Source: an uncultured cyanobacterium (GTDB taxonomy: Bacteria; Cyanobacteriota; Cyanobacteriia; Cyanobacteriales; Nostocaceae). From it: a DNA stretch of 64,000 nt. The notes below the pieces were generated by a model. That model saw only the letters and a list, made by a program, of their open reading frames with translations. It was not told the DNA's origin and did no database searches. Positions 7,666 through 34,892 of this stretch are shown here, piece after piece (position 1 is the first letter of the stretch; every line of letters starts with the position of its first letter). Position numbers and translations under genes: made by a program. The stretch spans positions 4,672,001-4,736,000 of the forward strand of contig OY970166.1 of NCBI GenBank assembly GCA_963706595.1, read 5' to 3'.

Positions 7666-8859
7666 TCAACCAATCCGGCTATTGCTTAGGAGGCGTTGAG
7701 CTTTAAGAACCGCGTGACCGTCGGCTCTATTCTTTATATTGATTGCTGCATTGTGGTCACGGTCAAGACTGCATCCACAATTAAGGCAGTCATGCCAGCG
7801 TTCGTGCAGCTTTTTAGGAACTTTCACCCCACAACTAGAACAATCTTGTGATGTACCTGATGGATTCACTGCGATTACCAATAACCCAGCATTTACGGCT
7901 TTGGTTGTCAATATGGACAGGAAGCTTGACCATCCAGCGTCATGTACAGATTTGGCTAGCATGGAAAGAGAAAGACCTTTAACGTTTAAATCTTCATGAA
8001 CTACAACGTCATATTTTTTCAGGAGATTGTTCGCTATTTTCAAGTGAAAGTCTTTACGTTTATCAGCTACTTTTTTGTGCTGCTTGGCGACTTGCTGAAT
8101 AGCTTTTTTACGCCGATTACTTCCTTTTTTCCGGCGTGAGATCCGTTTTTGAATGACCCGTAATCGCTTTTGAGATTTACGGTAATGCTGAGGGATCGGG
8201 ACAACATTACCCTCGGAAGTTGTCAAAAAGTCTTTTAAACCCAGGTCGATACCAGTTATAGAATCTGGATTGAAATCAGGTTTAATTGTGGGAACTGTCG
8301 CATCTTCAAGGCTTAAACTCAAATAATAACCATCAGCTTTTTTTGTTACTGATGCGGTTTTAATTTTAAATCCGTCAGGTATTGGGCGGTGCAAAATCAC
8401 CTTGACCATACCAAACATCGGCAAAGTGATCAGACTGCCTTGTAAACACCCATCTTTTATCTGTGGATATGTAAACGTGCGGTAACGTTCACGAGATTTA
8501 AAGCGAGGTCGCCCACTTCGTTTTCCATTGCTATCACCTTTTAAAAAACGGTCAAATGTCACCTTCACTCGTTTAACTATGTCCTGTAATACCTGCGAGT
8601 AAATTTCGCCGTACCAAGGATGAGTTTTTTTAAGCTGTGGTAGCGTTTTCTTTTGTGAATAATAGTCTGGGTTATCCCTTAATTCTGGTATATGGCAGAC
8701 CAGAGGACAAGCGTTAATCGGTGAACGATTGCGCTCATACCAATCAAATCTATCAGCCAACAGATAGTTGTACTGTGAACACAGCATAGCCAACCATCTG
8801 TCTATTTCAATGGCTTGCTTTGTTGTTGGTCGTAGCTTATATTGGTACGCTGTCCTCAC
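7666..8859 (-). CDS. tnpB: TnpB RNA-guided endonuclease
   Basis: N-terminal YQYKLRPT, RuvC-I GIDLGL, Ruv[11 protein letters not shown], zinc finger CSSC/CLNC, Ruv[14 protein letters not shown]. Confidence 0.95.
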
Positions 8860-17486: not shown

Positions 17487-19406
17487 ATGAACTCTATACA
17501 AAAACCTTGCTTAACTATTCCTGATTTCCTTGAACATTGGCAAAAAACACAACCAGATGCGATCGCAATTATCGCCCCCCAACGTCAACCCCTAACTTAC
17601 CAGCAACTTCACGCCCAAACCCTGATAGTTGCCCAAGCTTTAGCACAACTCAATATTCATCCTAACGAACCGGTAGCCGTTGCCCTTCCCAACAGTCCAG
17701 AAATGGCTGTGATGTTCCTCTCCGTTGCTTCCTATGCCACCTGCGCCCCCCTCAACCCCAACTATCGAGAAACAGAGTATGAATTTTATCTGAGTGACCT
17801 GCAACCAAAAGCGCTGATTATGCAATCTGGGGTAGCTGACGCAGCCCGCAAAGTCGCGGAAATGCAAAAAATACCAATTATTGAGTTATCACCTAATTTA
17901 GAGGCATCAGCAGGTATCTTTTCCCTGAACTTTACCCCTGCATCTACCGCCCAAATTGACCCCGCCACCCCCGATAATATCGCCCTGATTTTGCATACTT
18001 CCGGCACTACCTCCCGCCCAAAAATCGTTCCTCTCAGCCATCACAATCTTTGTACTTCTGCCAGCAACATTAGCCAAACACTACAATTAACAGCCCATGA
18101 CTGCTGTCTCAACGTCATGCCTTTATTTCATATTCATGGGTTGATAGGCTGTTTGCTCTCCACCATCAGCACCGGGGCAAGTATAATTTGTACTCCGGGG
18201 TTTCAATCACCCAACTTTCTCGACTGGTTACAACAACTGCAACCAACTTGGTATTCTGCTGTACCGACAATGCAGCAGCTAATTTTGGAAAGAGCAAAAT
18301 CTACTTCTGACCTCTCCCACAACTTAAGGCTAATTCGTTCCTCCTCCGCTTCCCTTCCCCCACAAGTAATTCAAGAATTGGAAGCCACCTTCAAAGTGCC
18401 TGTGATTGAGGCTTATGGCATGACAGAAGCCTCCCATCAAATGACCAGTAACCCCCTACCGCCTTTAGTGCGTAAACCCGGTTCAGTTGGTTTACCAGCA
18501 GGGCCTGAAGTTGCCATCATGGATGAAGCTGGTAATTTTCTTGCCGTTGGAGAGGTTGGAGAAATAGTCATTCGTGGTGCAAATGTGACACAAGGATATG
18601 GGAATAATCCTGAAGCTAACACCAAAGCATTTACACAGGGGTGGTTTCGCACAGGAGACCAGGGGATGTTTGATGAGGATGGCTATCTGACGATTAAAGG
18701 ACGAATCAAAGAATTAATCAATCGTGGTGGAGAAAAAATAGCCCCTCGTGAAATTGATGAAGTGTTACTGGAACATCCAAACATTGCCCAAGCTGTAGCT
18801 TTTGCTGTTCCTCATTCTCTGTTAGGAGAAGAAGTTGGAGTAGCCGTAGTTCTCAAACAGGGCAAAACTGTTACCGAGGAAGAAGTACAAACATTTATTG
18901 CCAAGTCTCTAGCAGATTTTAAAGTTCCCCGTCGGGTTGTTTTTTTAGATGCAATTCCCAAAGGTGCTACTGGCAAGTTACAACGGATTGGATTAGCTGA
19001 AAAATTAGGGATCACCTTTGCCGAACCAGCAACAGAACTTTTAAGTTTTATCCCTCCTAGAACATCTTTAGAAATAGTCATCGCCAACATTTGGGCAACG
19101 TTTCTCAAACGGGAGAAAATCGGGATAGAAGATAATTTCTATGCCTTGGGAGGACAATCTTTAGAAGCGGTGGAAATTACAGGTGAAATAGAAGAACTTT
19201 TTGCTATTAAACTACCCTTATTAGCAATCTCTAAAGCTCCTACGGTTGCTAAACTGGCAGAATTAATAATACAAAAATCCTCACAGGCAAAACTCCTAGA
19301 AATAATGGCTCAACAAATTCTCGATGTGGCGGATATGCAAGAAGAAGAAATTGAACAAATGTTAGCTGAACACAACGCTTGTGCTGGGGTAGAAGGAGAA
19401 TCATGA
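17487..19406 (+). CDS. NRPS loading protein: oxalate-CoA-ligase-like adenylating enzyme fused to a carrier (PCP/ACP) domain
   Basis: LHTSGTTSRPK, PLFHIHGL, WYSAVPTM, IRSSSASL, EAYGMTEASHQMTSNPLPP and IPKGATGKLQR. C-terminal carrier DNFYALGGQSL and an acidic docking tail. Confidence 0.85.
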   Translation: MNSIQKPCLTIPDFLEHWQKTQPDAIAIIAPQRQPLTYQQLHAQTLIVAQALAQLNIHPNEPVAVALPNSPEMAVMFLSVASYATCAPLNPNYRETEYEFYLSDLQPKALIMQSGVADAARKVAEMQKIPIIELSPNLEASAGIFSLNFTPASTAQIDPATPDNIALILHTSGTTSRPKIVPLSHHNLCTSASNISQTLQLTAHDCCLNVMPLFHIHGLIGCLLSTISTGASIICTPGFQSPNFLDWLQQLQPTWYSAVPTMQQLILERAKSTSDLSHNLRLIRSSSASLPPQVIQELEATFKVPVIEAYGMTEASHQMTSNPLPPLVRKPGSVGLPAGPEVAIMDEAGNFLAVGEVGEIVIRGANVTQGYGNNPEANTKAFTQGWFRTGDQGMFDEDGYLTIKGRIKELINRGGEKIAPREIDEVLLEHPNIAQAVAFAVPHSLLGEEVGVAVVLKQGKTVTEEEVQTFIAKSLADFKVPRRVVFLDAIPKGATGKLQRIGLAEKLGITFAEPATELLSFIPPRTSLEIVIANIWATFLKREKIGIEDNFYALGGQSLEAVEITGEIEELFAIKLPLLAISKAPTVAKLAELIIQKSSQAKLLEIMAQQILDVADMQEEEIEQMLAEHNACAGVEGES

Positions 19407-21808
19407 GTCAATTTGAACAGCAACCATTAAATTTATCAAGTCACAAGCGGGCTTTATTAAAAAAGCTACAACAGCAGCAAGGAATAAAGGGAGTATCAAC
19501 ACAGAAAATTCCCCAAAGGACGACAGAGGGAGAACTTCCACTTTCTTATTCTCAAGAGTGGATGTGGTTACTGGAACAACTGACTCCTACTGTTTACAAC
19601 AATCCCCTGACTCTGAAATTAACTGGTCAACTCAATTACAAAAGCTTAGAAAGAGCCTTGAATGAAATTGTAGTTCGCCATGAAGCGCTGAGAACAAAAT
19701 CTTATTTATCAGCAGGAATAACAAAACAATTTATTGCGCCTCCCTCAGATTATATTCTCTCAATTGTTGATGTATCGTCAGCATCAGAAGCTAGAGAACA
19801 GCTAATAGCAGAAACTAAACGCCCTTTTCAATTGGAAAAAGACTTGCCTTGGCGTGCAGTTTTATTCCGCATCAGCGAAATTGAACATTGGTTTCATCTC
19901 ACCTTACATCACATCGTTGATGACGATCAATCTGATGTACTTTGGGTTAAGGAACTGACTGTTTTATATGAAGCATTTTCAGAAAATCGTCCATCACCTC
20001 TATCTGAATTACCCATTCAATACGCAGATTTTGCGCTTTGGCAGCGAGAGCAATTACAAGGAGAAAATTACCAAAAACTTCTAAATTACTGGCAAAATCA
20101 ACTAGGAGATTTACCCCCTGCTCTCAATTTACCATTTAAGCAACAACCAGACTTAAAAACATTAGCAGGTGATCAAGAACAGATCAGACTTTCCCCAGAA
20201 TTAACCAGTTCCTTAAAATACCTGAGTCAGCAAGCACAGGTGACTTTTTTCACGCTACTTTTGACTACTTTAAAAATCTTGCTTTATCGCTATACAGGGC
20301 AAAGTGATTTAATAGTTGGTACTCCTACTTCTTGGCGACAAAAACCGGAAACTCAGAGTTTAATCGGGGTTTTCATGAATAACTTAGTATTACGCAGTAA
20401 GCTATCAGGAGATATTAGTTTTCTGACATTCTTAAGACAAGTACAAGATACGGTTTTAGAAGCCCAAGAGCATAGTAACTTCCCCTATCTAGAACTGGTT
20501 ACTCAGTTGGAGAATGGTGGCGTTGATAAAGGAAACTCTCTATTTGAGGTAATGCTGGATTTTCAAGGTCAGTCATTACCAGTAAGGGAGGTTTCTGGTT
20601 TAACTTGGGAATCCCTGGAAATTAATCCTAAAACTGCAAAAGTTCCTCTTGCTTTACACCTGGAAGAAGACAATGGAGAATTGAAAGGCTTTTTTGGATA
20701 TAGCACTGGTTTATTTGATTGAGATACTATTATTCGTGCTGTTGGACATTTTGAAACCTTATTAGAAGGGATTGTTGCTAATCCTGATCAACTTATTTCT
20801 AAGTTACCTTTGTTAACAACTTCTGAGCAACAACAAATTTTAGTTGAGTGGAATCAGACTGAGACAGAATACCCACAAGATAAGTGTATTCATCAATTAT
20901 TTGAGGAACAGGTTGAGAAAATGCCAGATGCGATTGCAGTTGTGTTTGAAGATCAACAACTAACTTATCAACAGTTGAATGAAAAAGCTAATCAACTAGC
21001 ACATTACTTACAAGAAATTGGAGTCAAACCAGAGGTTTTAGTAGGGATTTGTATAGAACGTTCTCTGGAGATGATAGTAGGATTATTAGGGATTCTCAAA
21101 GCGGGAGGAGCTTATGTTCCTCTTGATCCTAATTCTCCCCATGAGCGAATGGAGTATCTATTTGCCGATGCTCAATTTAGTTTATTGATCACAAAAAAAA
21201 GAGCATCATTAAATTTCCCAAAATCCTATCCTTTGATAATTGATATAGATGAGTGTTCAGACGTATTACAACATCAGAGTAAATCTAATTGTCAAAGTGG
21301 TGTAACAGCTAGAAATTTAGGATATGTCATTTATACATCTGGTTCAACTGGACAGCCAAAAGGTGTATTAGTTGAACATAGAAGTGTAGCCAACTTTTTG
21401 TATTTTCGTAACAACGAAATTTTTAAACCAGATGAGTTAAAAGCAGGAACAGTCACAGCTTCTATTTACTTTGATGCTAGTGTTGCTCAAATTTTCTCTC
21501 CCCTAATCATAGGTGGTAAAATCGTTATCATTCCCGAAATAGGCCAATTATTTAAATGGATAGAGCAGGAAAGAATTACTTGTTTAACCATAGTCCCTTC
21601 ATTATTAGAGCAATTACTCCAAAGCTCTTCCCTACCTGATTCTATTCAGGTTATTGGATTAGGTGGAGAAGCAGTAACTGAAACTTTGCTAAAAGAATTA
21701 GTCCAGCATCCCAACGTTAAAAAAATTATTAATTTATATGGTCCAACAGAAGCCACAATTGGTAGCTGTAGTAGTATCATATATGAGCAAATAAATCATT
21801 CAGTGTGA
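19403..21808 (+). pseudogene. NRPS condensation domain + N-terminal half of an adenylation domain (A1-A5), with an in-frame TGA at 20720-20722
   Basis: ATG 19403 overlaps the upstream stop (ATGA). C-domain motifs LSYSQE and HHIVDDD. ORFs 19379..20722 and 20810..21808 share one frame across a single TGA. A3 YTSGSTGQPKG and A5 NLYGPTE are present, then a stop. Confidence 0.8.
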
Positions 21809-21817
21809 GACTTATCT

Positions 21818-22678
21818 ATGTATTCAAATAATCAAAACATTACATCTAATAACTTATCTAAAAATCATTGGAAAAAAGCTCCCCAATGGTTTGATTTGCT
21901 TAGTTCACCCTTACGTCCAAGTCCTGAAGATATAGATTTTCTGAAACTACAAGTTTTACCTAAACTACAAATAGACTCTGCTGAAACAAAAAAAGTTGTT
22001 TTATTAGGAGTAACACCAGAAATTGCCACTTTACCTTGGTCTGAAAAGACTGAAATTTTAGCTATTGACAGTTCTGATATGATGATTAATACAGTTTGGC
22101 CTCGAGAACAGGTTTCTAGAGGAAAAGCTATTAATGGAAATTGGCAACAACTGCCTTTAGCAGATAATTCCTGTAACCTGGTTTTAGGAGACGGTTGTTT
22201 TACTTTACTTGATTATCCTCATGGCTATAAAACAGTTTTACAAGAAATTCTCAGAGTCCTTAAAACTAACGGATTATGTGTAATGAGATTTTTCTTGCGC
22301 CCAGAGAAAGCTGAGGATTTGCCAACTATATTTGCACAATTACAGAATAAATCTGTTGGTAATTTTCAGGTTTTTAAGTGGCGTTTAGCAATGGCTTTAC
22401 AAAAAAATATTCAGTCAGGAGTTCCAGTCAGAGAAATTTGGCAGGTATGGAATCAAGAAGTTCCTTTCCCAGAAAAACTTATGCAAGAATTGGCATGGTC
22501 GAGCGAATTGCTAGAAACTATAAATATCTATAAAGATTCACCATCTGTTTACACATTTCCCACATTAGCAGAAGTTAGACAGTTGTGTAATTCTGACTTT
22601 ATCGAAGAGTCCTGTTATTTTCCTAGCTATGAGTTGGGAGAACGTTGTCCCACTTTAGTATTTCGCGCTCTCAAGTAA
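21818..22678 (+). CDS. Class I SAM-dependent methyltransferase (atypical motif I)
   Basis: VVLLGVTPE, ILAIDSSDMM, GNWQQLPLADNSCNLVLGDG and EILRVLKTNG. Confidence 0.75.
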   Translation: MYSNNQNITSNNLSKNHWKKAPQWFDLLSSPLRPSPEDIDFLKLQVLPKLQIDSAETKKVVLLGVTPEIATLPWSEKTEILAIDSSDMMINTVWPREQVSRGKAINGNWQQLPLADNSCNLVLGDGCFTLLDYPHGYKTVLQEILRVLKTNGLCVMRFFLRPEKAEDLPTIFAQLQNKSVGNFQVFKWRLAMALQKNIQSGVPVREIWQVWNQEVPFPEKLMQELAWSSELLETINIYKDSPSVYTFPTLAEVRQLCNSDFIEESCYFPSYELGERCPTLVFRALK

Positions 22679-22736
22679 AATTTTTCTGAACCAATATTGT
22701 ATTAAAACGAAGTCACTTTATAGGAGGATGAATTGA

Positions 22737-24305
22737 ATGTTGGATTGCATCGTTATTGGAGGGGGTCCAGGAGGCTTAGTTACTACTAAAGAGCTACTTG
22801 AACAAGGCATAGATAAAGTAGTTTGCTTGGAAAAAACAGAGGAAATAGGCGGTGTTTACATTAATCATGCTTATGATAATTTAATTTTGACTTCTTCTTG
22901 TACATATAGTATGTTTTCAGATTTCTGGATGGGAGATGGAAAACAGCACGAATTCTGGACTAAAAAAGAAGTTGTTGAATATTGGAAAAATTACGCTAAA
23001 CATTTTGGAGTTATAGATAAAATTCGTTTCAACTCTGAAGTTTTATCAATAACTCCACAAGACACAGGAGGATGGCAAGTTGAACTGAAATCACAAGAAA
23101 TTTTACACTCAAAACGAGTAGCATTAGCAATTGGCAATAATAATATCCCTAGTTATCCAGATTGGAAAGAATCATTAACCCAGGTTGAGTTTTTTCATTC
23201 CCAACAATATCGCAATGCTAACGGATTTGTAGATAAAAATGTATTAGTAGTTGGAGGCGGAGAGTCAGGAGCAGATATAGCACTAGAAACATCTAAAGTC
23301 GCCAAAACTTGCTGGAATAGTCTACGGAATTCCGCCGGATGGATTATTCCCAGAAAAAGAGGTGCTTATGCTGCTGACATTGCTACCCATCGAGGGTTAT
23401 ATGGTTTACCAAGGGAATATGGATATACATTTAGTAATCTTCTTATTCAAAATGAATTGAATTACAATGATCCGGTTCATGACACTGTTGTGAAGCTGAA
23501 TCAGAAAATAAAGTCTAAAAACGGAATTTGGGGAATATATGGAACTAAAAACTTGTCATTACCTCAAGCAATTGTTGATCATGGTTGTCAAGTTGTAGGC
23601 GAAATTTCCCAAGTAGAAGATGGAGGTAAAACTTTAATCACTGCGGATGGTGAAATTCTGGAAAATGTAGATGCAGTGGTATTTTGTACAGGTTACAAAA
23701 ACTCTATTTCCTTTCTACCAGATGAGTTTAAAAAAACCGATCCTCGATATCTGTATAAACATATGTTTCATCCAGAATTGCGGGATAAAATTGTTTGGAT
23801 TGGTTGGGCGCGTCCAGGTTATGGTAGCCAATTTCCGATTATGGAAATGCAAGCTAGGTTGTTTGCGTTAATTTGTGCCGATCAAAAAGAACTACCATCT
23901 TTGGAAACTATGAAAGAGGTTGCATTTGTAGATAGAGAAAATTTTTTAAAGCAGTTTGAACATAATGCTGTTCGCATAAGAAGTTTGGTTGATTACCATA
24001 TCTATATGGATGATCTTGCAGATGTAATTGGATGTAAACCGCCATTATGGAAATACTTCTTTTTGCATCCTCGTCTATGGCTACGGATAGTATATGGAGC
24101 AACTCAAGCTACTCAATTTCGTCTCCAAGGACCTGGACAGAAGGAAACTTTAGCTCAAGAGTTTATTAGGAAATTACCTGTAAGTCCCTTCAATCATGTG
24201 GTCAAAGCTGGTTTAATAGGTCGTTTAATTTATGCTTTGAACGCTATAGTTAAACCTATTTCATCTTTACGCTTACGGAAGCTAAAACATAAAACTTTAT
24301 CTTGA
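22737..24305 (+). CDS. Flavin-containing monooxygenase (class B, FMO-like)
   Basis: FAD motif GGGPGG, FMO motif FHSQQYR, NADPH motif GGGESG and FCTGY. RBS AGGAGG upstream. Confidence 0.88.
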   Translation: MLDCIVIGGGPGGLVTTKELLEQGIDKVVCLEKTEEIGGVYINHAYDNLILTSSCTYSMFSDFWMGDGKQHEFWTKKEVVEYWKNYAKHFGVIDKIRFNSEVLSITPQDTGGWQVELKSQEILHSKRVALAIGNNNIPSYPDWKESLTQVEFFHSQQYRNANGFVDKNVLVVGGGESGADIALETSKVAKTCWNSLRNSAGWIIPRKRGAYAADIATHRGLYGLPREYGYTFSNLLIQNELNYNDPVHDTVVKLNQKIKSKNGIWGIYGTKNLSLPQAIVDHGCQVVGEISQVEDGGKTLITADGEILENVDAVVFCTGYKNSISFLPDEFKKTDPRYLYKHMFHPELRDKIVWIGWARPGYGSQFPIMEMQARLFALICADQKELPSLETMKEVAFVDRENFLKQFEHNAVRIRSLVDYHIYMDDLADVIGCKPPLWKYFFLHPRLWLRIVYGATQATQFRLQGPGQKETLAQEFIRKLPVSPFNHVVKAGLIGRLIYALNAIVKPISSLRLRKLKHKTLS

Positions 24306-24346
24306 TAATCAAAGTACATAATCAAAGTACGAGTCTTACAAAAACA

Positions 24347-25189
24347 ATGGGAATATCTATTGGTAAACCGATCTTTAATACACAAGTCTATATTCTTGAT
24401 CAAAACTTAAATCTTCTTCCTGTAGGTATTCCCGGAGAGTTACACATCGGAGGAATTGGTCTATCTAGAGGCTATTTGAGGCGCGATGAACTAAGTGAAA
24501 ATAAGTTTATCCCCAATCCTTTTGGTGAGGGAAAGCTATATAAAACTGGAGATTTAGCTCGTTATCTTCTTAACGGAGAAATTGAATTTCTCGGTCGTCT
24601 AGATGATCAAGTCAAAATACGGGGTTTCCGTATTGAATTAGGAGAAATTAAAAATTCTTTATCTCAGCATGATCAAATCCGAGAAACCTTAGTTATTGCC
24701 TACGAAGATTTAGTTGAAAAGCGATTAGTTGCTTATTTTGTTAGCCGTGCTGATGACGCTATTTCTAATCAAGACTTACGAGAGTTTCTAGGGCAAAAAT
24801 TACCCTCTTACATGATTCCGTCTGCTTTTCTACAAATAGAGAAGTTTCCCTTAACTACCAGTGGCAAAATCGACCGTCGCGCTTTACCAAAACCGAGTTT
24901 TGAGCAGATTAATACAGAGTTTGTTCCCCCTCGCACTGAGATAGAAGTCAAAATTGCCGAGATTTGGTCACAAGTTTTGGGGATAGATACTATCGGCGTT
25001 GATGATAATTTTTTTGCCGTAGGAGGACATTCACTTTTAGCAACTCAGGTAATTTCCCGCCTGTTCCAAGTGTTTGGTGTCAAACTTTCTTTTATCAGTT
25101 TTTTCTCTACACCTACTATAGCGGGATTAAGTCAGGAAATAGAGAAGTTGCGCGGGGTTAGTGATGATTATGAAGAGGGAGAAATCTGA
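24347..25189 (+). CDS. C-terminal half of the adenylation domain (A6-A10) + PCP + SLiM docking tail
   Basis: SIGKPIFNT, GELHIGG..LSRGY, LYKTGDL, GRLDDQVKIRGFRIELGEI, SGKIDR, GGHSLLA and terminal DDYEEGEI. First ATG is at 24347. Confidence 0.8.
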   Translation: MGISIGKPIFNTQVYILDQNLNLLPVGIPGELHIGGIGLSRGYLRRDELSENKFIPNPFGEGKLYKTGDLARYLLNGEIEFLGRLDDQVKIRGFRIELGEIKNSLSQHDQIRETLVIAYEDLVEKRLVAYFVSRADDAISNQDLREFLGQKLPSYMIPSAFLQIEKFPLTTSGKIDRRALPKPSFEQINTEFVPPRTEIEVKIAEIWSQVLGIDTIGVDDNFFAVGGHSLLATQVISRLFQVFGVKLSFISFFSTPTIAGLSQEIEKLRGVSDDYEEGEI

Positions 25190-25569
25190 ATTATATTCAA
25201 ATTTTACACAAAAACCTCACTATAAGTATCGCTGATTTCCTTGGGCATTGGCAAAAAACACAACCAGATGCGATCGCAATTATAATTCATCGAGAAGAAT
25301 TTGTTGCCCCTACTCATACAACAGAAATTAAATTAGCTCAAATTTGGGAAGAAATATTGAAAATAAAGAACATAGGAATTGATGATAATTTTTTGGACTT
25401 AGGAGGAAATTCTTTACTGGCAACACAAATTATCTTTCGTCTCCGCCCAACCTTTTAGGTAGAAATTTCTCTAAAGAGTTTTTTCAAAACACCTAATATA
25501 GCGGGATTAAGCCAGGAAATAGACAATTTACGCGAGTTTAGTGATAATTATGAGGAGGGGGAAATATGA
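25186..25569 (+). pseudogene. Decayed stand-alone carrier-protein gene (chimera of the loading-gene N-terminus and a PCP with SLiM tail)
   Basis: One frame: (L)NYIQILHKNLTISIADFLGHWQKTQPDAIAII...IDDNFLDLGGNSLLATQ...F*VEI...SDNYEEGEI*. CTG replaces the start and there is a TAG at 25456-25458. Confidence 0.75.
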
Positions 25570-28500
25570 ATTCTATTCAAGTATTATTGGAAGAATTGCA
25601 AGCTGAAAATATTCAGTTGTGGGTTGAGGAAGATCGTCTGCGCTATCGTTGTCCAAATAATGCCCTCACCCCAGAGTTAAGAGAACAGTTATCTGCTCAT
25701 AAATCGGAAATAATTGCTTTTTTGCGACAACAGGAACGAGTGGAAACTATCCCCATTGCTGAGGATGATTTTCTCCCTTTATCCTTCGCCCAGCAACGTT
25801 TGTGGTTTCTCGATCAACTTGAACCAAATCTTGCGGTTTATAATACCCCTCTAGCTTTACGTTTGCAGGGGAATCTTGATATTTCTGCTTTAGAAAAAAG
25901 CCTGGAAAAGATTGTTGAGCGTCATAGTGTTTTGCGTACTAATTTTCCCACGATAGACGGAAAACCTTATCAAAATATAGTATCGGAATTAAGGCTATCC
26001 GTTCCTGTGGTTGATATGCAACATCTTGATTCTGCTACAGCAGAGGCGGAACTTCAAGATATTCTTGTTCAATTCATCAACGAACCTTTTGATTTAGCAG
26101 AAGGAAAGGTAATCAGAAGTCAGATATTTCATATCTCTGCTTCAGAATATATTTTAGTCACTGTTGTACATCATATCGCTTTTGATGCTTGGTCATCAAG
26201 GATTTGGTGGCAGGAGTTAATGAATTTTTATCAGGCTTTTGCTTTCAATGAACCGATATCTTTACCAGAGTTATCGATTCAATATAAAGATTTTGCGGTG
26301 TGGCAAAAATCACGTTTGCAAGGAGATTTTTTAGACCAGGAAGTTAATTACTGGCGAGAAAAACTAGCGGATGCGCCTCAAAATTTGGATCTGCTTACTG
26401 ACAACCCCCGCCCACCTGTACAGACTCACACAGGCGATCGCCAACATTTTCACCTTTCTAGTTCTCAAGTGGTAGCACTCAAACAATTAGGACTGGGTAA
26501 GGGGGCGACTTTGTATATGACTTTACTAACGGCTTTTGCCATCCTGCTGCATCGCTATAGTGGCCAAGAAGATTTTCTGATTGGTTCACCCATTGCTAAC
26601 CGCAACTATACAGAAATTGAAAACTTGATTGGCTTTTTTGTCAATACCCTGGCTTTGCGGATTAATTTAGCTAAAGACATTACTTTCCTGGAACTGCTGC
26701 AACAAGTTCGAGATACTACCCTAGAAGCTTATAGCCATCAAGATATTCCCTTTGAAAAGCTGGTTGAGGAATTGCAACCACAGCGCGATCGCTCCCGTCA
26801 TCCGCTATTTCAAGTCATGTTTGCCCTGCAAAATGTGCAAAGAGCAACCGTGAATTTACCTGACATTAATGTTAGTTCTTTCCCAGTTAGTACCAATACG
26901 AGTAAGTTTGATATCACTGTCATTCTGGAAGAAACCAAGGAAGGATTAAAAGGCTTTTTTGAGTATAGCAATGATTTATTTAATCGAGATACTATTATTC
27001 GTGCTGTTGAACATTTCCAAACATTACTAGAAGGGATTGTTGCTCATCCCGATCAACTTATTTCCCAGTTACCGCTATTCACAAATTCTGAGCAAAAACA
27101 AATTTTAGTTGAGTGGAATCAGACTAAGACAGAATACCCACAGGATAAGTGTATTCATCAATTATTTGAGGAACAGGTCGAGAAAACGCCAGATGCGATC
27201 GCAGTGGTGTTTGAAGATGAACAACTAACTTATCAACAGTTGAATGAAAAAGCTAATCAACTTGCTCATTACCTAAAAGGTTTAGGGGTTGGTACTGATG
27301 TTTTAGTAGGGTTATATGTAGAAAGGTCTGTTGATATTATGGTTGGTATATTAGGCATTCTCAAAGCTGGTGGTGCTTATGTCCCCCTTGACCCCAAATA
27401 TCCATCGGAACGTTTGGCATTAATGATACAGGAGGCTCAAGTTGAGGTTATATTAACACAACAACACCTAATAAATTCACTGCTAAAAACAGAGGCAAAA
27501 ATCATCTGTTTAGATACAGATTGGCAAGTAATATCATCTTCCCATTCTCCTCAATCTTCCCCCAGTCCTCAATCCCCTAATGATCTAGCTTACGTAATTT
27601 ATACATCTGGTTCAACTGGTAAACCCAAAGGCGTTGCTATGCCGCATCGTCCTTTGGTGAACTTAATTACTTGGCAATTACAAACATCCACCATTGAACC
27701 CCAAAGCAGAACACTGCAATACACACCCATTAGTTTTGATGTCTCCTTTCAAGAAATCTTTTCCACCCTGACCACAGGTGGCACATTGGTCTTAATCACC
27801 GATGAGACACGACGCAATCCCAGCAGTTTATTGCAACTTCTTCAGCAACAGCACATCAATCGTTTATTCTTACCCTTTGTTGCCCTACAACAATTAGCTG
27901 AGGTGGTACAGCTAGAAGGTATACTCCTCAGTAGTTTGCAGGAAGTGATTACTGCCGGCGAACAGTTACGGATTACGGAGGCAATCGCACATCTGTTCAC
28001 CCATTTACCCCACTGCACACTACACAACCATTATGGGCCGTCAGAAACTCATGTTGTAACTGCCTATACCTTGACAGGTTCAGCCCAAGATTGGGCGATG
28101 TTACCACCGATTGGTCATCCCATAGCCAATACTCAAATTTATCTCTTAGATGCTTACGGACAACCAGTACCAATTGGGGTAGCAGGGGAATTATATATTG
28201 GGGGTGCTGGTATGGCTAGAGGTTATCTCCATCGTCCTGAACTAACTGCTAAGAAATTTGTTTCCCATCCCTTGAGCCATGAATCAACCGCAAAACTCTA
28301 TCGCACTGGTGATTTAGCACGTTATCTTCCTGATGGAAATGTAGAATTTCTCGGTCGTCTAGATGATCAAGTCAAAATACGGGGTTTCCGTATTGAACTT
28401 GGAGAAGTGGAAGCTGTTCTCAATCAACATCCTCATGTCTTCAATACAGTGGCGATCGCCCGTGAAGACATTCCCGGAGATAAACGCCTCATAGCTTATA

Positions 28501-29822
28501 TTATCCTTGAACCCCAAGCAACACCCTCTCAGAGCGAATTGCGGGAATTTCTGAGACAGAAGCTACCAGATTACATGATTCCCTCTGTTTTCGTATTTTT
28601 AGACAAGTTTCCCCTGACTCCCAATGGTAAAATCAACCGTCGCGCTCTGCCCAAGCCTGAATTAACTCTGCAAGAACGAGAGGAAACTTTTATCGCGCCA
28701 CGTAATGAATTAGAAGAGAAACTGGCAGTAATTTGGCAAGAAATTTTAAAGATTGAGCCAATTGGTATTCACGATAACTTCTTTGAACTAGGAGGTCATT
28801 CCCTACTCACAGTCAGTCTGGTAACTAAAATCGAGACGACGCTGGGGAAAAAACTGCCAATTACAGCTCTATTTGAGTTAACAACCATTGCTCAGTTAGC
28901 CAATTATCTTAAAAATGAAGATATTTTAGACAACCCTCCCGCTCATCCCACTATTTACGATTACCAACTTTCTGGAGAGCAAGAAAAACAGCTTTTAGCC
29001 ATTATCGTTGGTCGTCAAGGTGAACGACCTCACCCGCACTCATTCATGGTGAAAATCCACTCAAAAGGTGATCAGGAAAAACCGTTTTTTTACTGCGCTA
29101 ATAGTTATAAAGAAGCTCTACCTTTAGCCAATTGTTTAGAATATTCTTTTTATTTACTCGAATCAGGTTATACTGTCTTTGGTAGTGATTATGCTTACGG
29201 CATTAAGGCTTTAGCGGCGCGCCATGTGGAAGATATTTTAAGAGTCCAGCCTCACGGATTTTATTCCATTGGTGGTTATTCTTATGGAACACTGGTAGCT
29301 TACGAAATTAGTCAGCAACTGCAAGCACGAGGAAAAACCGTAGATTTATTAGTGATTTTTGATCGTCCAGGTACTCATTTTCTTTACGTACTTTATCAAT
29401 ACTTCTACAAGCTACCGTCTCATATTAGTTGGATTTTGTCTACTCTCCAGCAGTCTCACCCCAGAAAACGTTTGCAAGATTTGCAACAAAAAGGATTAAG
29501 GATTTTGCGGAGGTTGGGATTAAATCAGATACCACAGCAAGCAACAACAGAAATACAACTATCAGAACAGAGCCTATCTTCCCCAATGCTGAACACATCT
29601 CCTTATCAATTTGCGCCCTATGAAGGTCGTGTAGTCTTGTTGTGTGCAGAGGAAAGAAAAACGCCACTGTGGTTATTTCCCCACAATGGGTGGAGTCAGA
29701 AAATCCTACCCAATTTGGAGGTATACAAAGTACCTGGGACGCACCACAACATGATTAAATCTCCCCATGTCGAAGTTTTGGCAAAACAACTGAAAACGTG
29801 TTTACAACGCATCGCATTTTAG
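25566..29822 (+). CDS. Terminal NRPS: TubC-N-type docking domain-C-A(Pro)-PCP-TE
   Basis: N-terminal IQLWVEEDRLRYRCP, HHIAFDAWS, complete A1-A10 with by-eye specificity code DVQFIAHVVK (proline), GGHSLL, TE GYSYG and a C-terminal His motif PGTHHNM. Confidence 0.92.
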   Translation: MNSIQVLLEELQAENIQLWVEEDRLRYRCPNNALTPELREQLSAHKSEIIAFLRQQERVETIPIAEDDFLPLSFAQQRLWFLDQLEPNLAVYNTPLALRLQGNLDISALEKSLEKIVERHSVLRTNFPTIDGKPYQNIVSELRLSVPVVDMQHLDSATAEAELQDILVQFINEPFDLAEGKVIRSQIFHISASEYILVTVVHHIAFDAWSSRIWWQELMNFYQAFAFNEPISLPELSIQYKDFAVWQKSRLQGDFLDQEVNYWREKLADAPQNLDLLTDNPRPPVQTHTGDRQHFHLSSSQVVALKQLGLGKGATLYMTLLTAFAILLHRYSGQEDFLIGSPIANRNYTEIENLIGFFVNTLALRINLAKDITFLELLQQVRDTTLEAYSHQDIPFEKLVEELQPQRDRSRHPLFQVMFALQNVQRATVNLPDINVSSFPVSTNTSKFDITVILEETKEGLKGFFEYSNDLFNRDTIIRAVEHFQTLLEGIVAHPDQLISQLPLFTNSEQKQILVEWNQTKTEYPQDKCIHQLFEEQVEKTPDAIAVVFEDEQLTYQQLNEKANQLAHYLKGLGVGTDVLVGLYVERSVDIMVGILGILKAGGAYVPLDPKYPSERLALMIQEAQVEVILTQQHLINSLLKTEAKIICLDTDWQVISSSHSPQSSPSPQSPNDLAYVIYTSGSTGKPKGVAMPHRPLVNLITWQLQTSTIEPQSRTLQYTPISFDVSFQEIFSTLTTGGTLVLITDETRRNPSSLLQLLQQQHINRLFLPFVALQQLAEVVQLEGILLSSLQEVITAGEQLRITEAIAHLFTHLPHCTLHNHYGPSETHVVTAYTLTGSAQDWAMLPPIGHPIANTQIYLLDAYGQPVPIGVAGELYIGGAGMARGYLHRPELTAKKFVSHPLSHESTAKLYRTGDLARYLPDGNVEFLGRLDDQVKIRGFRIELGEVEAVLNQHPHVFNTVAIAREDIPGDKRLIAYIILEPQATPSQSELREFLRQKLPDYMIPSVFVFLDKFPLTPNGKINRRALPKPELTLQEREETFIAPRNELEEKLAVIWQEILKIEPIGIHDNFFELGGHSLLTVSLVTKIETTLGKKLPITALFELTTIAQLANYLKNEDILDNPPAHPTIYDYQLSGEQEKQLLAIIVGRQGERPHPHSFMVKIHSKGDQEKPFFYCANSYKEALPLANCLEYSFYLLESGYTVFGSDYAYGIKALAARHVEDILRVQPHGFYSIGGYSYGTLVAYEISQQLQARGKTVDLLVIFDRPGTHFLYVLYQYFYKLPSHISWILSTLQQSHPRKRLQDLQQKGLRILRRLGLNQIPQQATTEIQLSEQSLSSPMLNTSPYQFAPYEGRVVLLCAEERKTPLWLFPHNGWSQKILPNLEVYKVPGTHHNMIKSPHVEVLAKQLKTCLQRIAF

Positions 29823-29879
29823 TTTGGTAGAAAGGATTGCCCGCCCTTGTGTACCTCACCCAAATGAAATGTGCTGTAA

Positions 29880-32800
29880 CTATTCCTCATCCAGTTGCAT
29901 TTGATGGCGATTTGGTTTGAATAAACTGGCTGTGGTTGTTTTCATCACAATATACAAAATTGGCACGACAAACAAACTCAGAAAAGTAGCGATTAACATC
30001 CCGCCAAATACCGTAGTTCCCAAAGACAGACGACTTCCCGCACCAGCACCTGTGGCAATAGTTAAGGGGAAAATACCCAGAAGCGTAGAAAAGGCTGTCA
30101 TCAAAATCGGGCGTAAACGTCCTTGTGCAGCCTCTACAGCCGCCTTAGTAATGGAAAGCCCTTCATCCCGCAGTTGATTGGCAAATTCCACAATCAAAAT
30201 CGCATTCTTACTCGCCAAACCAATCAACATGACTAGACCGATTTGACAGTAAACATCATTAGCAAAACCTCGCATTGATTGAGCTACAAGTGCGCCAAAA
30301 ATTGCTAAAGGCACTGATAAGAGAATAATTAAGGGGTCTATGTAGTTCTCATACTGAGCAGCTAGCACTAAAAAGACGAAGACAATTCCTAAACCAAAGA
30401 TAATCGGGGCTAAACCGCCAGATTCTATTTCTTCTAATGCGGTTCCTGACCACTCATAACCAAAACTAGGTGGTAAAATTTCTTCTGCTAGGTTTTCCAT
30501 TGCTTGAATAGCCTTACCAGAACTAGAACCGGGAGCCGCAGAACCATTAATTTCAATTGAACGAAATAGATTATAGTGATTAATTGTTTGCGCCCCGACA
30601 ACAGAAGTCGTTGTAATTAAGTTTCTCAAAGGAATCATTTGATTGGTTTGAGAACGAATATGTAGTTGACCGATATCTTTGGGGTTAGAGCGAAACTGTT
30701 GATCGGCTTGGATATAAACTCGATAATTACGCTGCTGGAGATTGAAATCGTTAACGTATTGAGAACCCAATGCAGTTTGCAGAGTCCGGAAGATATCATC
30801 GATGGAAACTTGCAGTGCTTTGGCTCGATTGCGGTCTACTTCTACCAGCAATTGTGGTGTTTCGGCGGCAAAAGTGCTAAATACAGCTTGTAATCCTGGT
30901 GTTTGGTTGGCGCGACCCAGCAATTGACCCATTGATTGGACTAAACTATCTAAGCCACTACTACCTCTACGGTCTTGTAGTTGAAAATTGAAGCCGCCAA
31001 AGTTACCTAATCCTTGAATGGGTGGTGGATTTACAGGAAAGACTCTGGCTTCTGAGATAGCAAATAATTGCCCTTGTAATTTACCAATGATTGCCTGTAC
31101 TGTTTGGTCTGGTCGTGAGCGTTCTCCCCAAGGTTTTAAAGTTGTAAAGATAATGCCGTTATTTGCAGTGTTACCACTAAAACTAAAGCCGCCAATAGCG
31201 AAGGTTCCCACGACTTCAGGAATTTCTAAGATTTGTTTTTCTACCTGGGCAATGACATCACTGGTATATTGCAGGGAAACTCCTTGTGGCCCTTGGAGCA
31301 GCGTAATAAAATAGCCTTCGTCTTCGTCTGGGAGAAAGGCTGTAGGTACTGTGATATACAGCCAAGCTGTCATTCCCAAGGAGACGATGAATAATCCAAT
31401 AATAATGTTTTTGAAGCGGATGAGAAAGTGGAGCGATCGCTCATAACTTCTTTGTACCGAGTCGAGTACCTGATTAACTCGATCAAAAAACCGCCCCAGC
31501 CAACCTGAAGCTTTCTGTCCTGGACGTAGCAGCAAGGCACACAAAGAAGGTGTCAGGGTCAAGGCCAGAAACGTAGAAATCACAATAGAAAAGGCGATAG
31601 TCAGGGCAAATTGCCGATAAAGTGCGCCTGTAGTTCCCGGAAAAAACGCCACGGGGATAAATACCGCCATCAACACCAAGGAAGTAGCAATAACTGCACC
31701 AAAAAGTTCAGCCATTGACTCACTGGCGGCTCGGCGAGGACTCATGCCTTTATCCTGGATAAAACGGCTGATTTGCTCAACCACCACAATCGCGTCGTCT
31801 ACCACCATCCCAGATGCTAAGGTTAGACCAAATAAAGTCAAACTATTAATGGAAAAGCCAAAAATTCTGGCAAAAATAAATGTCCCAATCAGAGACAAAG
31901 GAACAGTCAAGGCGGGAATTAAAGTAGTTCGCCAGTCTTGCAAGAAGACAAAAATCACAATCACAACCAGTATAATTGCTGCAATTAGAGTCTTGACTAC
32001 TTCTGTCATTGATTCTTCGACAAAGCGGGTGGTGTCAAAGGCTACCTGATACTGTATTCCTGGCGGAAAATTAGGAGCCAGTCGCGCCATTTCTTCCCTA
32101 ACTCCCCGCGCCACATCTAAGGCGTTACTCCCAGGAAGCTGATAAATACCTAAACCGACAGCATCTTTGGCGCGATATCGCAAAAATGAGTTGTAATTTT
32201 CGGCTCCTAGTTCGGCTCTCCCAACATCTTTCAGCTTGATTAAAGTGCCATCATCGTTAGTTCTCAGGACAATTTCGGCAAATTCTGATGGTTCTACTAA
32301 TCTACTAGCCGCACGGACATCAATTTGATATCTTTGTCCTTCTGGAGCAGGTTCTTGACCAATGCTACCTGCACCGACTTGTAAGTTTTGTTCCGATAGG
32401 GCATTGGCTACATCCTCAGTCGTTAGCCCCCGACTAGCAAGGCGATTCGGATCTAACCATATACGCATGGCATAACGACGTTCGCCAAAGATGGTAACAT
32501 TACCAACACCTTTGACTCTTTTTAAGGCATCTCCTAAGTAAAGGTCGGCATAGTTGCTTAAAAATATATTGTCGTACTCATCATTTTCAGCAAATAGACC
32601 AATTGCTAAGAGTATGTTATTAGATTGCTTTGAGACCCTCACACCCGTGCGTTGTACGGATTCTGGGAGTTGCGGTTGGGCAATGGAAACCCGGTTCTGC
32701 ACATCCACAGCCGCAATATCAGGATTTCGGGATGAATCGAAGGTGGCTGTAATATTTGTGGAGCCATCGTTACTACTACTGGAAGTAATGTAGCGGATAC

Positions 32801-33023
32801 CTTGAATACCGTTGATTTGCCTTTCTAAGATGTTCGTCACACCGCTTTCTACGTCCTCAGCACTAGCTCCGCTAAAGTTGGCGGTGACGTTGATTTGAGT
32901 GGGAGCAATATCTGGGAAACGGGCGATGGGCAGTGTGGGTAAACAAATCAATCCCAATAACAGCACAATCAATGCACAAACTGTGGAAAAGACTGGCCGT
33001 TTGATAAAGAAATCAATAAACAT
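29880..33023 (-). CDS. RND efflux pump permease (AcrB/HAE1 family)
   Basis: FFIKRPVF, GMVVDDAIVVVE, GLASKNAILIVEFA and RLRPILMT. Confidence 0.95.
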   Translation of the reverse strand: MFIDFFIKRPVFSTVCALIVLLLGLICLPTLPIARFPDIAPTQINVTANFSGASAEDVESGVTNILERQINGIQGIRYITSSSSNDGSTNITATFDSSRNPDIAAVDVQNRVSIAQPQLPESVQRTGVRVSKQSNNILLAIGLFAENDEYDNIFLSNYADLYLGDALKRVKGVGNVTIFGERRYAMRIWLDPNRLASRGLTTEDVANALSEQNLQVGAGSIGQEPAPEGQRYQIDVRAASRLVEPSEFAEIVLRTNDDGTLIKLKDVGRAELGAENYNSFLRYRAKDAVGLGIYQLPGSNALDVARGVREEMARLAPNFPPGIQYQVAFDTTRFVEESMTEVVKTLIAAIILVVIVIFVFLQDWRTTLIPALTVPLSLIGTFIFARIFGFSINSLTLFGLTLASGMVVDDAIVVVEQISRFIQDKGMSPRRAASESMAELFGAVIATSLVLMAVFIPVAFFPGTTGALYRQFALTIAFSIVISTFLALTLTPSLCALLLRPGQKASGWLGRFFDRVNQVLDSVQRSYERSLHFLIRFKNIIIGLFIVSLGMTAWLYITVPTAFLPDEDEGYFITLLQGPQGVSLQYTSDVIAQVEKQILEIPEVVGTFAIGGFSFSGNTANNGIIFTTLKPWGERSRPDQTVQAIIGKLQGQLFAISEARVFPVNPPPIQGLGNFGGFNFQLQDRRGSSGLDSLVQSMGQLLGRANQTPGLQAVFSTFAAETPQLLVEVDRNRAKALQVSIDDIFRTLQTALGSQYVNDFNLQQRNYRVYIQADQQFRSNPKDIGQLHIRSQTNQMIPLRNLITTTSVVGAQTINHYNLFRSIEINGSAAPGSSSGKAIQAMENLAEEILPPSFGYEWSGTALEEIESGGLAPIIFGLGIVFVFLVLAAQYENYIDPLIILLSVPLAIFGALVAQSMRGFANDVYCQIGLVMLIGLASKNAILIVEFANQLRDEGLSITKAAVEAAQGRLRPILMTAFSTLLGIFPLTIATGAGAGSRLSLGTTVFGGMLIATFLSLFVVPILYIVMKTTTASLFKPNRHQMQLDEE

Positions 33024-33350
33024 AGATTTGAGAATTGGGTAAATAGAAATTGGTGGTTAGGAATTAGTCAACCCATTTTGGATTTATGAATAAAATCGAA
33101 CCACCTTCGCGCAGCGTATGCCCCCAGGGCTTTAGTCGCCAATATCGCCAAGGGAAGAGGTAAAAGGAAAGGTTTACAACTGATTTGGGATTGCTATAAT
33201 TAACCAATTTTGGGTTTTAATTTGAGGTTTTTCTATCTATTGACGAAATTGAGCATCTTAATCAGATTTGTATTTTATTTACTGGCAAAGTGCTGTGATG
33301 TCTAAGATTTCAATTTCTGATTCTAAATATTATGCAATTATGAATTAGAA

Positions 33351-34892
33351 TTAGGGTTTCTCGTTACTCTTTCCTTCTGGTGCAGGCATAATCGGCGCAC
33401 CATTGGTTAAGTTAAGAATGCCAGAAATAACGATTTTTTCTCCAGCTTCTAGTCCTTCTAGAACTTGATAATTATTTCCTTCAATGTCTCCCAATTTCAC
33501 GGGTTTTTGTTGAGCTACTAAGTTTGGCATTCCTGGTTTTGATTCTGCCGGCGCTTGGGCTACAAATACAAATGTCTGTCCACCCATGCGAGATATTGCT
33601 TCTGTGGGAATTAATATTCCTGGGCGTTCATCCCAGATGACTCTGGCTTGCACGTTGAGGCGATTTAGTATTTGGTTTCTGGTATTGGCAAAGGTGGCTT
33701 TAGCTAAAATATTCTGCGTACTCACACTGATATTAGGCGAAATAAAACTTACTTTACCTGTGACGGCGGGTTTGCCTTCAGCATCTAGTACTTGTACGGG
33801 TAAGCCTACACGCAATCTTTCGGCTTCATTGAAAGGAATAGCTAAATTCAATTCCAAGGAGTCATTTTTATTCAGTGTGGTGAGTTCGTCTCCTTCGCTG
33901 ACAAAATCTCCTGCCTTTGCCGGGATATCACCGAGAATACCAGTCAGAGGCGCGACAATGTTTGTGAATTGCTGTTGGACTTCGGCTACCTGGACTTGGG
34001 CGGCGGCTTCCATGACTTCAGAACGGGCTTGGGCAATTTCTTCTGGGCGAGGGCCGTTCTCTAGTTGTCTGAGGTTTTGCTTTTCTAGTTCCACAGCCGC
34101 AGCTAGTTCATCAATATCAGAGCTTCGGCTTTTGCGGAGTTGGTCAAGCCGTCTTTGAGCTTCTTCTAGCCTCGCTTTAGCGCTTCTTTGTTCTCCGAGA
34201 AATCCTTCTAGTTGGTCTTGGGAAACAGCTCCGTCTGTTCTTAATTGTTGGTATCGTTTACCTCTTGACTGTGCCAATTCTAAGTCCGATTTGGCGACTT
34301 CAATTTGAGCTTCAGCCTGAGCTATTTCTTCGGGACGCGCTCCTCCTTGGGCGTTTTTCAGGCGAGTTTCGGCTTGAACTAATCTGGCTTTACCCTGAGC
34401 AATTTCTTCAGAACGTGTACCTGCTTTGAGTTCTGCTAGTCGGGCTTGGCTACGGTTTAATGATGCTTTTGCTTGTCGTAGGCGGGCTTGGGTGTCGGCA
34501 CTTTGCAGGCGAATTATAACTTGTCCTTTCTGGACGCGATCGCCTGCTTTAAATAAAATTTCACTGATGCGCCCGTCAATTTCTGGCTTGATTGCTACTG
34601 AGCCAGGAGCGTCTAAAAAGCCACCAATCACTGAACTGTCTTCGATGGTTCCAGTTTCTACGGTGGCTAATTTTACAGGAATTCCCATTGGTTGACCAGC
34701 CGCAGCTGTATCACCAGGTGCATTCCCCGCCAAGCTATTTTGCCACCAGCGCCAGCCAAAGCCACCACCGGCAATTAACACCACGATGCCTAAAATCAAT
34801 GGCCAACGTTGCTTTTGACTGGGTTTAAATGTTTGCTCTTGCTGTTCAATTTCAGCAGAATTTTGAGGTTCAGGTGGTTCAGAATTGGGCAT
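33351..34892 (-). CDS. RND efflux periplasmic adaptor (membrane fusion protein)
   Basis: N-terminal TM segment, lipoyl-like halves, long coiled coil with repeated G.RPEEIAQA; upstream of the RND permease. Confidence 0.9.
   Translation of the reverse strand: MPNSEPPEPQNSAEIEQQEQTFKPSQKQRWPLILGIVVLIAGGGFGWRWWQNSLAGNAPGDTAAAGQPMGIPVKLATVETGTIEDSSVIGGFLDAPGSVAIKPEIDGRISEILFKAGDRVQKGQVIIRLQSADTQARLRQAKASLNRSQARLAELKAGTRSEEIAQGKARLVQAETRLKNAQGGARPEEIAQAEAQIEVAKSDLELAQSRGKRYQQLRTDGAVSQDQLEGFLGEQRSAKARLEEAQRRLDQLRKSRSSDIDELAAAVELEKQNLRQLENGPRPEEIAQARSEVMEAAAQVQVAEVQQQFTNIVAPLTGILGDIPAKAGDFVSEGDELTTLNKNDSLELNLAIPFNEAERLRVGLPVQVLDAEGKPAVTGKVSFISPNISVSTQNILAKATFANTRNQILNRLNVQARVIWDERPGILIPTEAISRMGGQTFVFVAQAPAESKPGMPNLVAQQKPVKLGDIEGNNYQVLEGLEAGEKIVISGILNLTNGAPIMPAPEGKSNEKP

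Follow-up and report, generated by a model that had tools for sequence, protein, structure and literature searches.

Adenylation (A) domains of nonribosomal peptide synthetases (NRPSs) are regarded as single folded units whose sole natural seam is the hinge between the A-core and the A-sub. The only published functional split A domain that we found is that of corallorazine, where the adjacent genes Crz1 and Crz2 divide the domain after motif A8 and where mixing Crz1.2 and Crz2 at 1:1 restored adenylation (PMC11342130). Interrupted A domains of families 1-7 are single polypeptides with inserts at a2-a3, a6-a7 or a8-a9 (PMC8341866; also PMC11355689), and the terms a5-a6 and split are absent from the text of the first of these sources (Lundy, Mori, Garneau-Tsodikova 2020). 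Central A-core loops also accept whole domains, such as the PLP domain that sits within JamL's A domain (PMC3870968) and the insertions at A4-A5 in the MtaG-type monooxygenase-in-A context (PMC8097286), and those are in-frame and form one chain. Here, we describe an A domain divided between motifs A5 and A6, with a methyltransferase (MT) gene and a flavin monooxygenase (FMO) gene between its halves, in 64,000 nt of DNA (the window) from an uncultured cyanobacterium of the Nostocaceae (GenBank assembly GCA_963706595.1, contig OY970166.1, positions 4,672,001 to 4,736,000).

Like the Crz pair, this locus distributes one A domain over a pair of open reading frames (ORFs). The second Crz gene encodes only A9-A10, the small subdomain, whereas the second half encodes A6-A10 here and the cut lies inside the A-core. 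The MT is fused to chain 1 in Crz but is here a separate gene of another family, and the Crz genes are adjacent whereas one to three genes lie between linked halves here and the halves are unlinked in one genome (G195). As in interrupted A domains, a tailoring methyltransferase occupies a loop within the A-domain coding sequence, but the break is at A5-A6 and stop codons flank the insert, which is not in-frame. In a literature search that covered few subscription papers, neither this cluster nor any A domain divided over two genes at A5/A6 had been reported, and a two-chain adenylation domain cut within the A-core is apparently undescribed.

From the sequences compared below, we consider it likely that this family is a two-chain adenylation domain, cut inside the A-core, which would function in trans. 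The first-pass annotation of the window had offered this arrangement, with its tailoring genes nested inside, as one of two readings, and it gains support from a fixed cut in five families, from inserts in shuffled arrangement, from the separate location of the C-half in G195 and from purifying selection. An A-core cut that survives in five families would mean that the core can assemble from two chains that share the active site. The site lies just behind the specificity pocket and, if our reading is correct, would give NRPS engineering a natural cut point at which specificity could be exchanged in the form of a separate protein. It would also represent a module type that domain-based genome mining misreads as two pseudogenes. 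The finding flags a cluster class that annotation would call broken and hints at an undescribed peptide family with a bulky modified residue.

The divided domain

The N-half (A_N) belongs to a tract at 20723..21808 (window coordinates; all features of the cluster are on the + strand) that comprises the linker from the condensation (C) domain and motifs A1 (20960), A2 (21095), A3 (21320), A4 (21470) and A5 (NLYGPTE, 21731-21751). It ends at a TGA (21806-21808) 18 residues past A5. The C-half (A_C, 24347..25189) opens with MGISIGKPIFNT at 24347 and carries A6 (24434), A7 (24539), A8 (24593), A9 (24800), A10 (24860), a peptidyl carrier protein (PCP) domain with its serine (GGHSL, 25022) and an acidic tail. 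The motifs were placed with patterns that we take to define A1-A10. Each core motif, including the P-loop, the A4 Asp, the A7 Asp and the A10 Lys, occurs once over both halves, and these motifs are kept in homologues. The Pfam AMP-binding profile is divided in the same way, with positions 1-330 in the N-half, positions 342-384 in the C-half and zero overlap. Motif and Pfam coordinates agree with the first-pass annotation, which had the domain ending about 18 aa past NLYGPTE (21808) and resuming at 24347, with A1-A5 in one half, A6-A10 in the other and every motif present once.

The start that had been given for the N-half, 20810, needs correction. An ORF does open there, at a TTG, but the ORF reading shows that the N-half forms the last part of a C-A_N protein whose natural start is 19403 and which is interrupted by an in-frame TGA at 20720-20722. 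This premature stop severs the condensation domain (19403..20722; Pfam; motif HHIVDDD) from A_N. An 88% identical relative (P0138) is a single 801-aa C-A_N chain with the same end point after A5, and all six members of its cluster, one of them named Aphanizomenon by its source, have no stop at the position of the TGA.

The gap between the halves measures 2538 nt and is filled by two genes. The first (21818..22678; Pfam Methyltransf_11) encodes a methyltransferase-fold protein of the class I, putatively S-adenosylmethionine-dependent type and of an uncharacterised family. The second (22737..24305) encodes an FMO-like flavin monooxygenase (PF00743, E 1e-61) whose top PDB match is an ancestral FMO5. 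The spacer ahead of the C-half contains a 13-nt tandem duplication (24305..24330, copies 24305-24317 and 24318-24330), and one copy is missing from sequencing run X2.

Logan contigs of about 91-93% identity bridge the junction from A_N to MT in three runs from three studies (X2, X3 and X6). The junction from MT to FMO is bridged in X2 and X3, and that from FMO to A_C in X2, where one contig spans MT, FMO and A_C; a fourth run (X1) gave no cover across MT or most of FMO. Because contigs from three independent runs bridge the junctions, misassembly at the split, which had been named as a way in which the initial reading could fail, is excluded.

The same cut in other cyanobacteria

The MT was matched in 5 of 401 genomes of the order, including that of the window (G000), each from a different family. 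In all four other genomes, a C-A_N gene adjoins the MT gene and ends 11-22 aa past A5. The order is C-A_N, a scyllo-inosose-dehydrogenase-like gene that exceeds its NCBIfam cut-off, MT and A_C-PCP in G042; C-A_N, FMO, MT and A_C-PCP in G235; and C-A_N, MT, FMO and A_C-PCP-C-A-PCP-TE (TE, thioesterase) in G367. A metagenome locus (L034) presents C-A_N, FMO, a chorismate-lyase-like gene, MT and A_C-PCP. The fourth genome, G195, has C-A_N and MT on one contig and A_C-PCP-TE on another. This C-half is an intact protein of 539 aa that starts with MSSIIGRPISNTQ and has unrelated genes on both flanks; compared with 95 other C-halves, it most resembles the split one of G042 (75%; 281 versus 243 bits), and the match is reciprocal.

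The cut site is constant and the gene content and order of the gap are variable, as four contents are found at one cut: MT-FMO, FMO-MT, FMO-chorismate-lyase-like-MT and dehydrogenase-MT. Stop codons follow A_N and the insert at all loci, and all six C-halves begin with Met and two or three residues, followed by IG[KR]PI.N. The sequences indicate that C-A_N, MT and A_C form a constant core, with starters and tailoring genes that differ among loci. It had been asked at the outset whether the split and its MT-FMO insert are conserved; the split is, in four other genomes and in L034, but the content of the insert is not.

We then searched proteins of 257-2000 aa using the pocket region of the N-half as a query. 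Of 84 matches, the best 11 (198-242 bits) all stop 11-22 aa past YGPTE, and the best continuous A domain scored 140 bits. One of the 11 is the window's own protein, four end like the counted loci and six are additional N-halves, known from the protein alone, with sources that include Moorena and Planktothricoides. Among the remaining 73 matches, 70 continue, two are short-ended (P0168 and P0192) and one is without the motif. The loop at the cut site is about 20-34 aa long in the nearest continuous relatives versus 17-21 aa in most other matches.

Wider searches added few loci. The MT profile had no match in 388 other genomes of the window's family and matched three of 401 at the level of the phylum, all of them loci already known; a search of genome contigs with a single MT query yielded only one distant, unrelated locus (L024). 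The N-half profile detected the centre genome only in three other families (1/52, 1/89 and 1/20) and three of 401 genomes at the level of the class, two of these matches being continuous A domains. Ten metagenome MT loci were found. NRPS context is present only in L034, L036 begins within MT, and the other eight have 33-42% identity and zero NRPS motifs on the MT strand. Overall, the split family appears to be small, old and patchy in cyanobacteria, and this rare, patchy distribution suggests horizontal transfer or repeated loss. Separately, two genomes of another order (L069:6877-11088 and L070:7111-11256) possess a single-module C-A-PCP-TE gene in which a relative of this A domain is unsplit, and have no member of the MT family.

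Proposed assembly in trans and its alternatives

Neither half is able to adenylate alone, given the chemistry of A domains. Chain 1 (C-A_N) bears, besides its condensation domain, A3 with the P-loop, A4, A5 and nine of the ten residues of the side-chain pocket. Chain 2 (A_C-PCP), beginning at the IG.PI.N strand, bears A6-A10, with the A7 Asp, the A8 hinge and the A10 Lys, as well as the carrier. The cut falls in a variable surface loop behind the A5 strand. In the mechanism that we propose, both chains would fold into a single active site that loads a bulky amino acid onto the PCP. This residue would then be modified by the constant MT, plus the FMO or another oxidoreductase. Once the domain was split, the gap would have become ordinary intergenic DNA within an operon, which would explain why it holds different genes in different orders. 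We lean slightly toward a natural heterodimeric enzyme in which one independent gene encodes the specificity half and another the catalytic/carrier half, and in which the two genes can be unlinked, such that a free A_C-PCP could pair with any compatible C-A_N.

The pocket code reads DAATGGLIG plus a K from the C-half, and at least seven relatives have the same or a near code. Pocket positions were anchored on the alignment with McyA, using a numbering that we assume to apply. The Ala-type A domain of McyA (PDB 8jbr, E 5e-33) is the closest solved relative of the pocket region and shares its short form around the pocket. McyA is continuous, however, and its pocket is DLFNNALTYK, so that bulky residues are replaced by small ones here. 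The small residues of DAATGGLIGK suggest a large substrate.

Structure prediction of the two halves, which the first-pass annotation had recommended, gave an A_N/A_C complex with an ipSAE of 0.92 against 0.02 for the best control, a mark attained by 116 of 157 solved complexes and by 2 of 215 mismatched pairs. The runs agree in at least 90% of contacts with a partner pLDDT of at least 84, and the complex was modelled without MT. Such a score is expected because the halves resemble solved intact A domains, and the model indicates only that the halves still fit.

Selection speaks for assembly in trans, since dN/dS is below 1 in both halves, including the C-half for which the first-pass annotation had proposed this measure. 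Of 15 pairs in each case, the pocket region gave 0.18-0.53 in the 12 that were unsaturated (three saturated), MT gave 0.33-0.48 in all 15, and the initial 190 codons of A_C gave 0.06-0.27 in 11 (four saturated), but dS is mostly near or above 1 and the values are rough. The closest and least saturated pair has a pocket dN/dS of 0.23 at a dS of 0.23. The C-halves of G235 and L034 are 86% and 82% identical to intact modules of their own clusters, which points to homogenisation by gene conversion. Conversion with working modules can by itself depress dN/dS in A_C, and the A_C values are weakened as evidence because of it; the converted C-halves nonetheless begin at the common cut site.

Other observations weigh against assembly in trans. 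No C-half is linked to the C-A_N gene of G195, and their pairing is based on similarity in an assembly of 330 contigs. We built a tree of 24 rows (17 protein matches of the split-containing branch, G235 and six outgroup rows), leaving out L034, which is identical to P0136, and other outgroup rows including P0192. The 13 split halves require two changes on this tree, and a single clade is neither rejected (p-AU 0.108) nor demonstrated. Folding would also be more difficult with a cut within the A-core than with that of Crz, which lies at the hinge between A-core and A-sub. Finally, the module of this particular strain is fairly likely to be broken by the TGA in its C domain, barring a sequencing error of one base, which is possible at position 20720, a position that the read table does not display. 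Two of six loci show decay: the window, with its nonsense codon and remnant, and L034, with a frameshifted FMO and broken upstream genes.

The remnant in the window is a degraded A-PCP stretch (25186..25569) in which CTG replaces the start, the interior is missing and a TAG (25456-25458) lies within the PCP. Its first 30 or so codons resemble the starter gene, with 88.6% DNA identity between 25205-25283 and 17495-17572, and run X2 skips it (joint 25122 to 25508). The cluster of this strain is probably decaying because it combines the nonsense TGA with this remnant. The first-pass annotation had taken the intact C-half to fit retained or very recent function; its frame, PCP serine and tail are indeed intact, but the nonsense codon and the remnant weaken that argument.

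The alternative that survives best, although we judge it unlikely, is that the halves are scaffolds: the C domain and the PCP would be used, a different A domain would load the PCP in trans and the split one would not adenylate. C domains and PCPs frequently depend on an adjoining A fold for their stability, and gene conversion could keep the motifs of A_C without selection acting on them. However, the pocket region has no paralog for conversion and is under purifying selection in the closest pair, and the same or a near pocket code is found in at least eight sequences. A3, A4, A5, A7, A8 and the A10 Lys are all retained, and the only free-standing A domain in the window's cluster is the starter.

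We grant a similarly low probability to an origin from an in-frame A5-MT-A6 domain that broke on both sides of the insert, leaving the MT as an obligatory third subunit that bridges the halves. The MT does adjoin one half in all six loci (after A_N in G000, G367 and G195; before A_C in G042, G235 and L034), it is in frame with that half in three of them, and a decarboxylase sits embedded in the A domain of JamL. Three of six is nevertheless close to the chance expectation of two, and the unsplit relatives carry a mere loop of 20-34 aa at the cut site. Two genomes (G1410 and G1239) are without a member of the MT family, and the halves could be modelled as a complex without it. Among the matches listed, 12 are longer proteins that contain the MT, and in none of them is it embedded in an NRPS A domain, which is weak evidence.

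The second reading of the first-pass annotation, that a tailoring cassette hit a loop and killed the module, is very improbable, as is a misassembled region. The decay of the cluster in this strain speaks for it, but one cut is found with different inserts in five families, where the frames are intact and dN/dS is below 1. This old cut stays in place while the insert varies, and the conserved loci rule out a killing insertion as the event that split the domain; contigs of three studies that bridge the junctions speak against misassembly.

Covalent rejoining of the halves, whether through excision of the DNA, splicing of the RNA, bypass by the ribosome or a split intein, has hardly any likelihood. 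The window's gap is divisible by three, but the gaps modulo 3 are 0, 1, 2, 1 and 2 over five loci, and the longest direct repeats at the junctions (6-10 nt) are not above shuffles. No recombinase or reverse transcriptase is found among the gap ORFs, the termini (an 11-22 aa tail and a 3-4 aa head) are too short for intein halves, and G195 has its halves unlinked. Read-through of the A_N stop into MT was also rejected, as the stop is TGA here but TAA elsewhere and the frame is not kept.

Nested enzymes, predicted product and neighbouring genes

The model of the MT (pLDDT 93) matches class I methyltransferases at only 11-17% identity, with no close solved relative. Residue D84, a candidate for the acidic residue that binds S-adenosylmethionine, is nearly invariant in 114 sequences, but the first loop is LGVTPE and not the glycine-rich GxGxG. 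Fold and profile searches yielded no substrate for the MT. Beyond the cyanobacteria, its family occurs in fusions with phenylacetate-CoA-ligase-like, Mur-ligase and Gfo/Idh/MocA proteins, and the A domain has a continuous relative that is fused to MurC (P0001-P0012 and P0199). The FMO lies within the gap in four of the five loci with linked halves, and stand-alone copies are found in L022 and L023. The copy in L022 (9283-19957) is 70% identical and is without an NRPS. It adjoins two P450-like genes, an ABC transporter and a chorismate-lyase-like gene; the pair formed by this FMO and the chorismate-lyase-like gene recurs within the gap of L034.

Upstream of the split module, the starter gene (17487..19406) encodes an oxalate-CoA-ligase-like adenylating enzyme of 639 aa with a fused carrier domain (Pfam PP-binding). 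Its top PDB matches are an oxalyl-CoA synthetase and oxalate-CoA ligases (E 8e-130 to 9e-122), and oxalate is the predicted starter substrate. Downstream, the terminal module (25566..29822; Pfam) has the order docking-C-A-PCP-TE and a continuous A domain. Its pocket, DVQFIAHVVK (read by eye from the translation), is presumably that of Pro. The gene opens with a TubC_N docking domain (Pfam); the acidic tail of the C-half is a probable docking peptide and may pair with it. Given the oxalate-CoA-ligase-like starter and the Pro-type code of the last module, the cluster in the window would make oxalyl-X-Pro, where X would be methylated and might also be oxidised.

In G235, an ICL/PEP-mutase-family gene adjoins the starter and could act as an oxalate supplier; a search of the window's genome with the G235 query did not detect this gene. 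The window's genome has one further oxalate-CoA-ligase-like gene at another site (G000:C1:721316-722764), which shares 50% identity with the starter.

The other clusters present features of their own. That of G042 (L021:4342-7942) begins with a 6-pyruvoyl-tetrahydropterin-synthase-family gene and an A-PCP-deaminase-methyltransferase fusion. That of G235 (L031:4591-12810) has a formyltransferase-like stretch, recognised by eye, behind its first C domain. In the first NRPS gene of L034 (2-3307), the C domain is almost directly joined to A10-PCP and the A core is deleted; it is followed (L034:3308-9221) by an adenylating gene with an in-frame stop and then a TauD-PCP fusion, and the nested FMO is frameshifted.

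Scans for promoters and terminators gave counts near chance (20 against 24.4; 10 against 6.3). Directly after the cluster, a 41-nt sequence (29838-29879) has three further copies in the genome at 90-95% identity. An AcrB/HlyD-type efflux pair (29880-34892, - strand) lies tail to tail with the cluster, and an IS605-type TnpB/Cas12f-like gene is found at 7666-8859 (- strand). Elsewhere in the genome, a second NRPS locus (G000:C1:5260413-5280402) carries continuous A domains.

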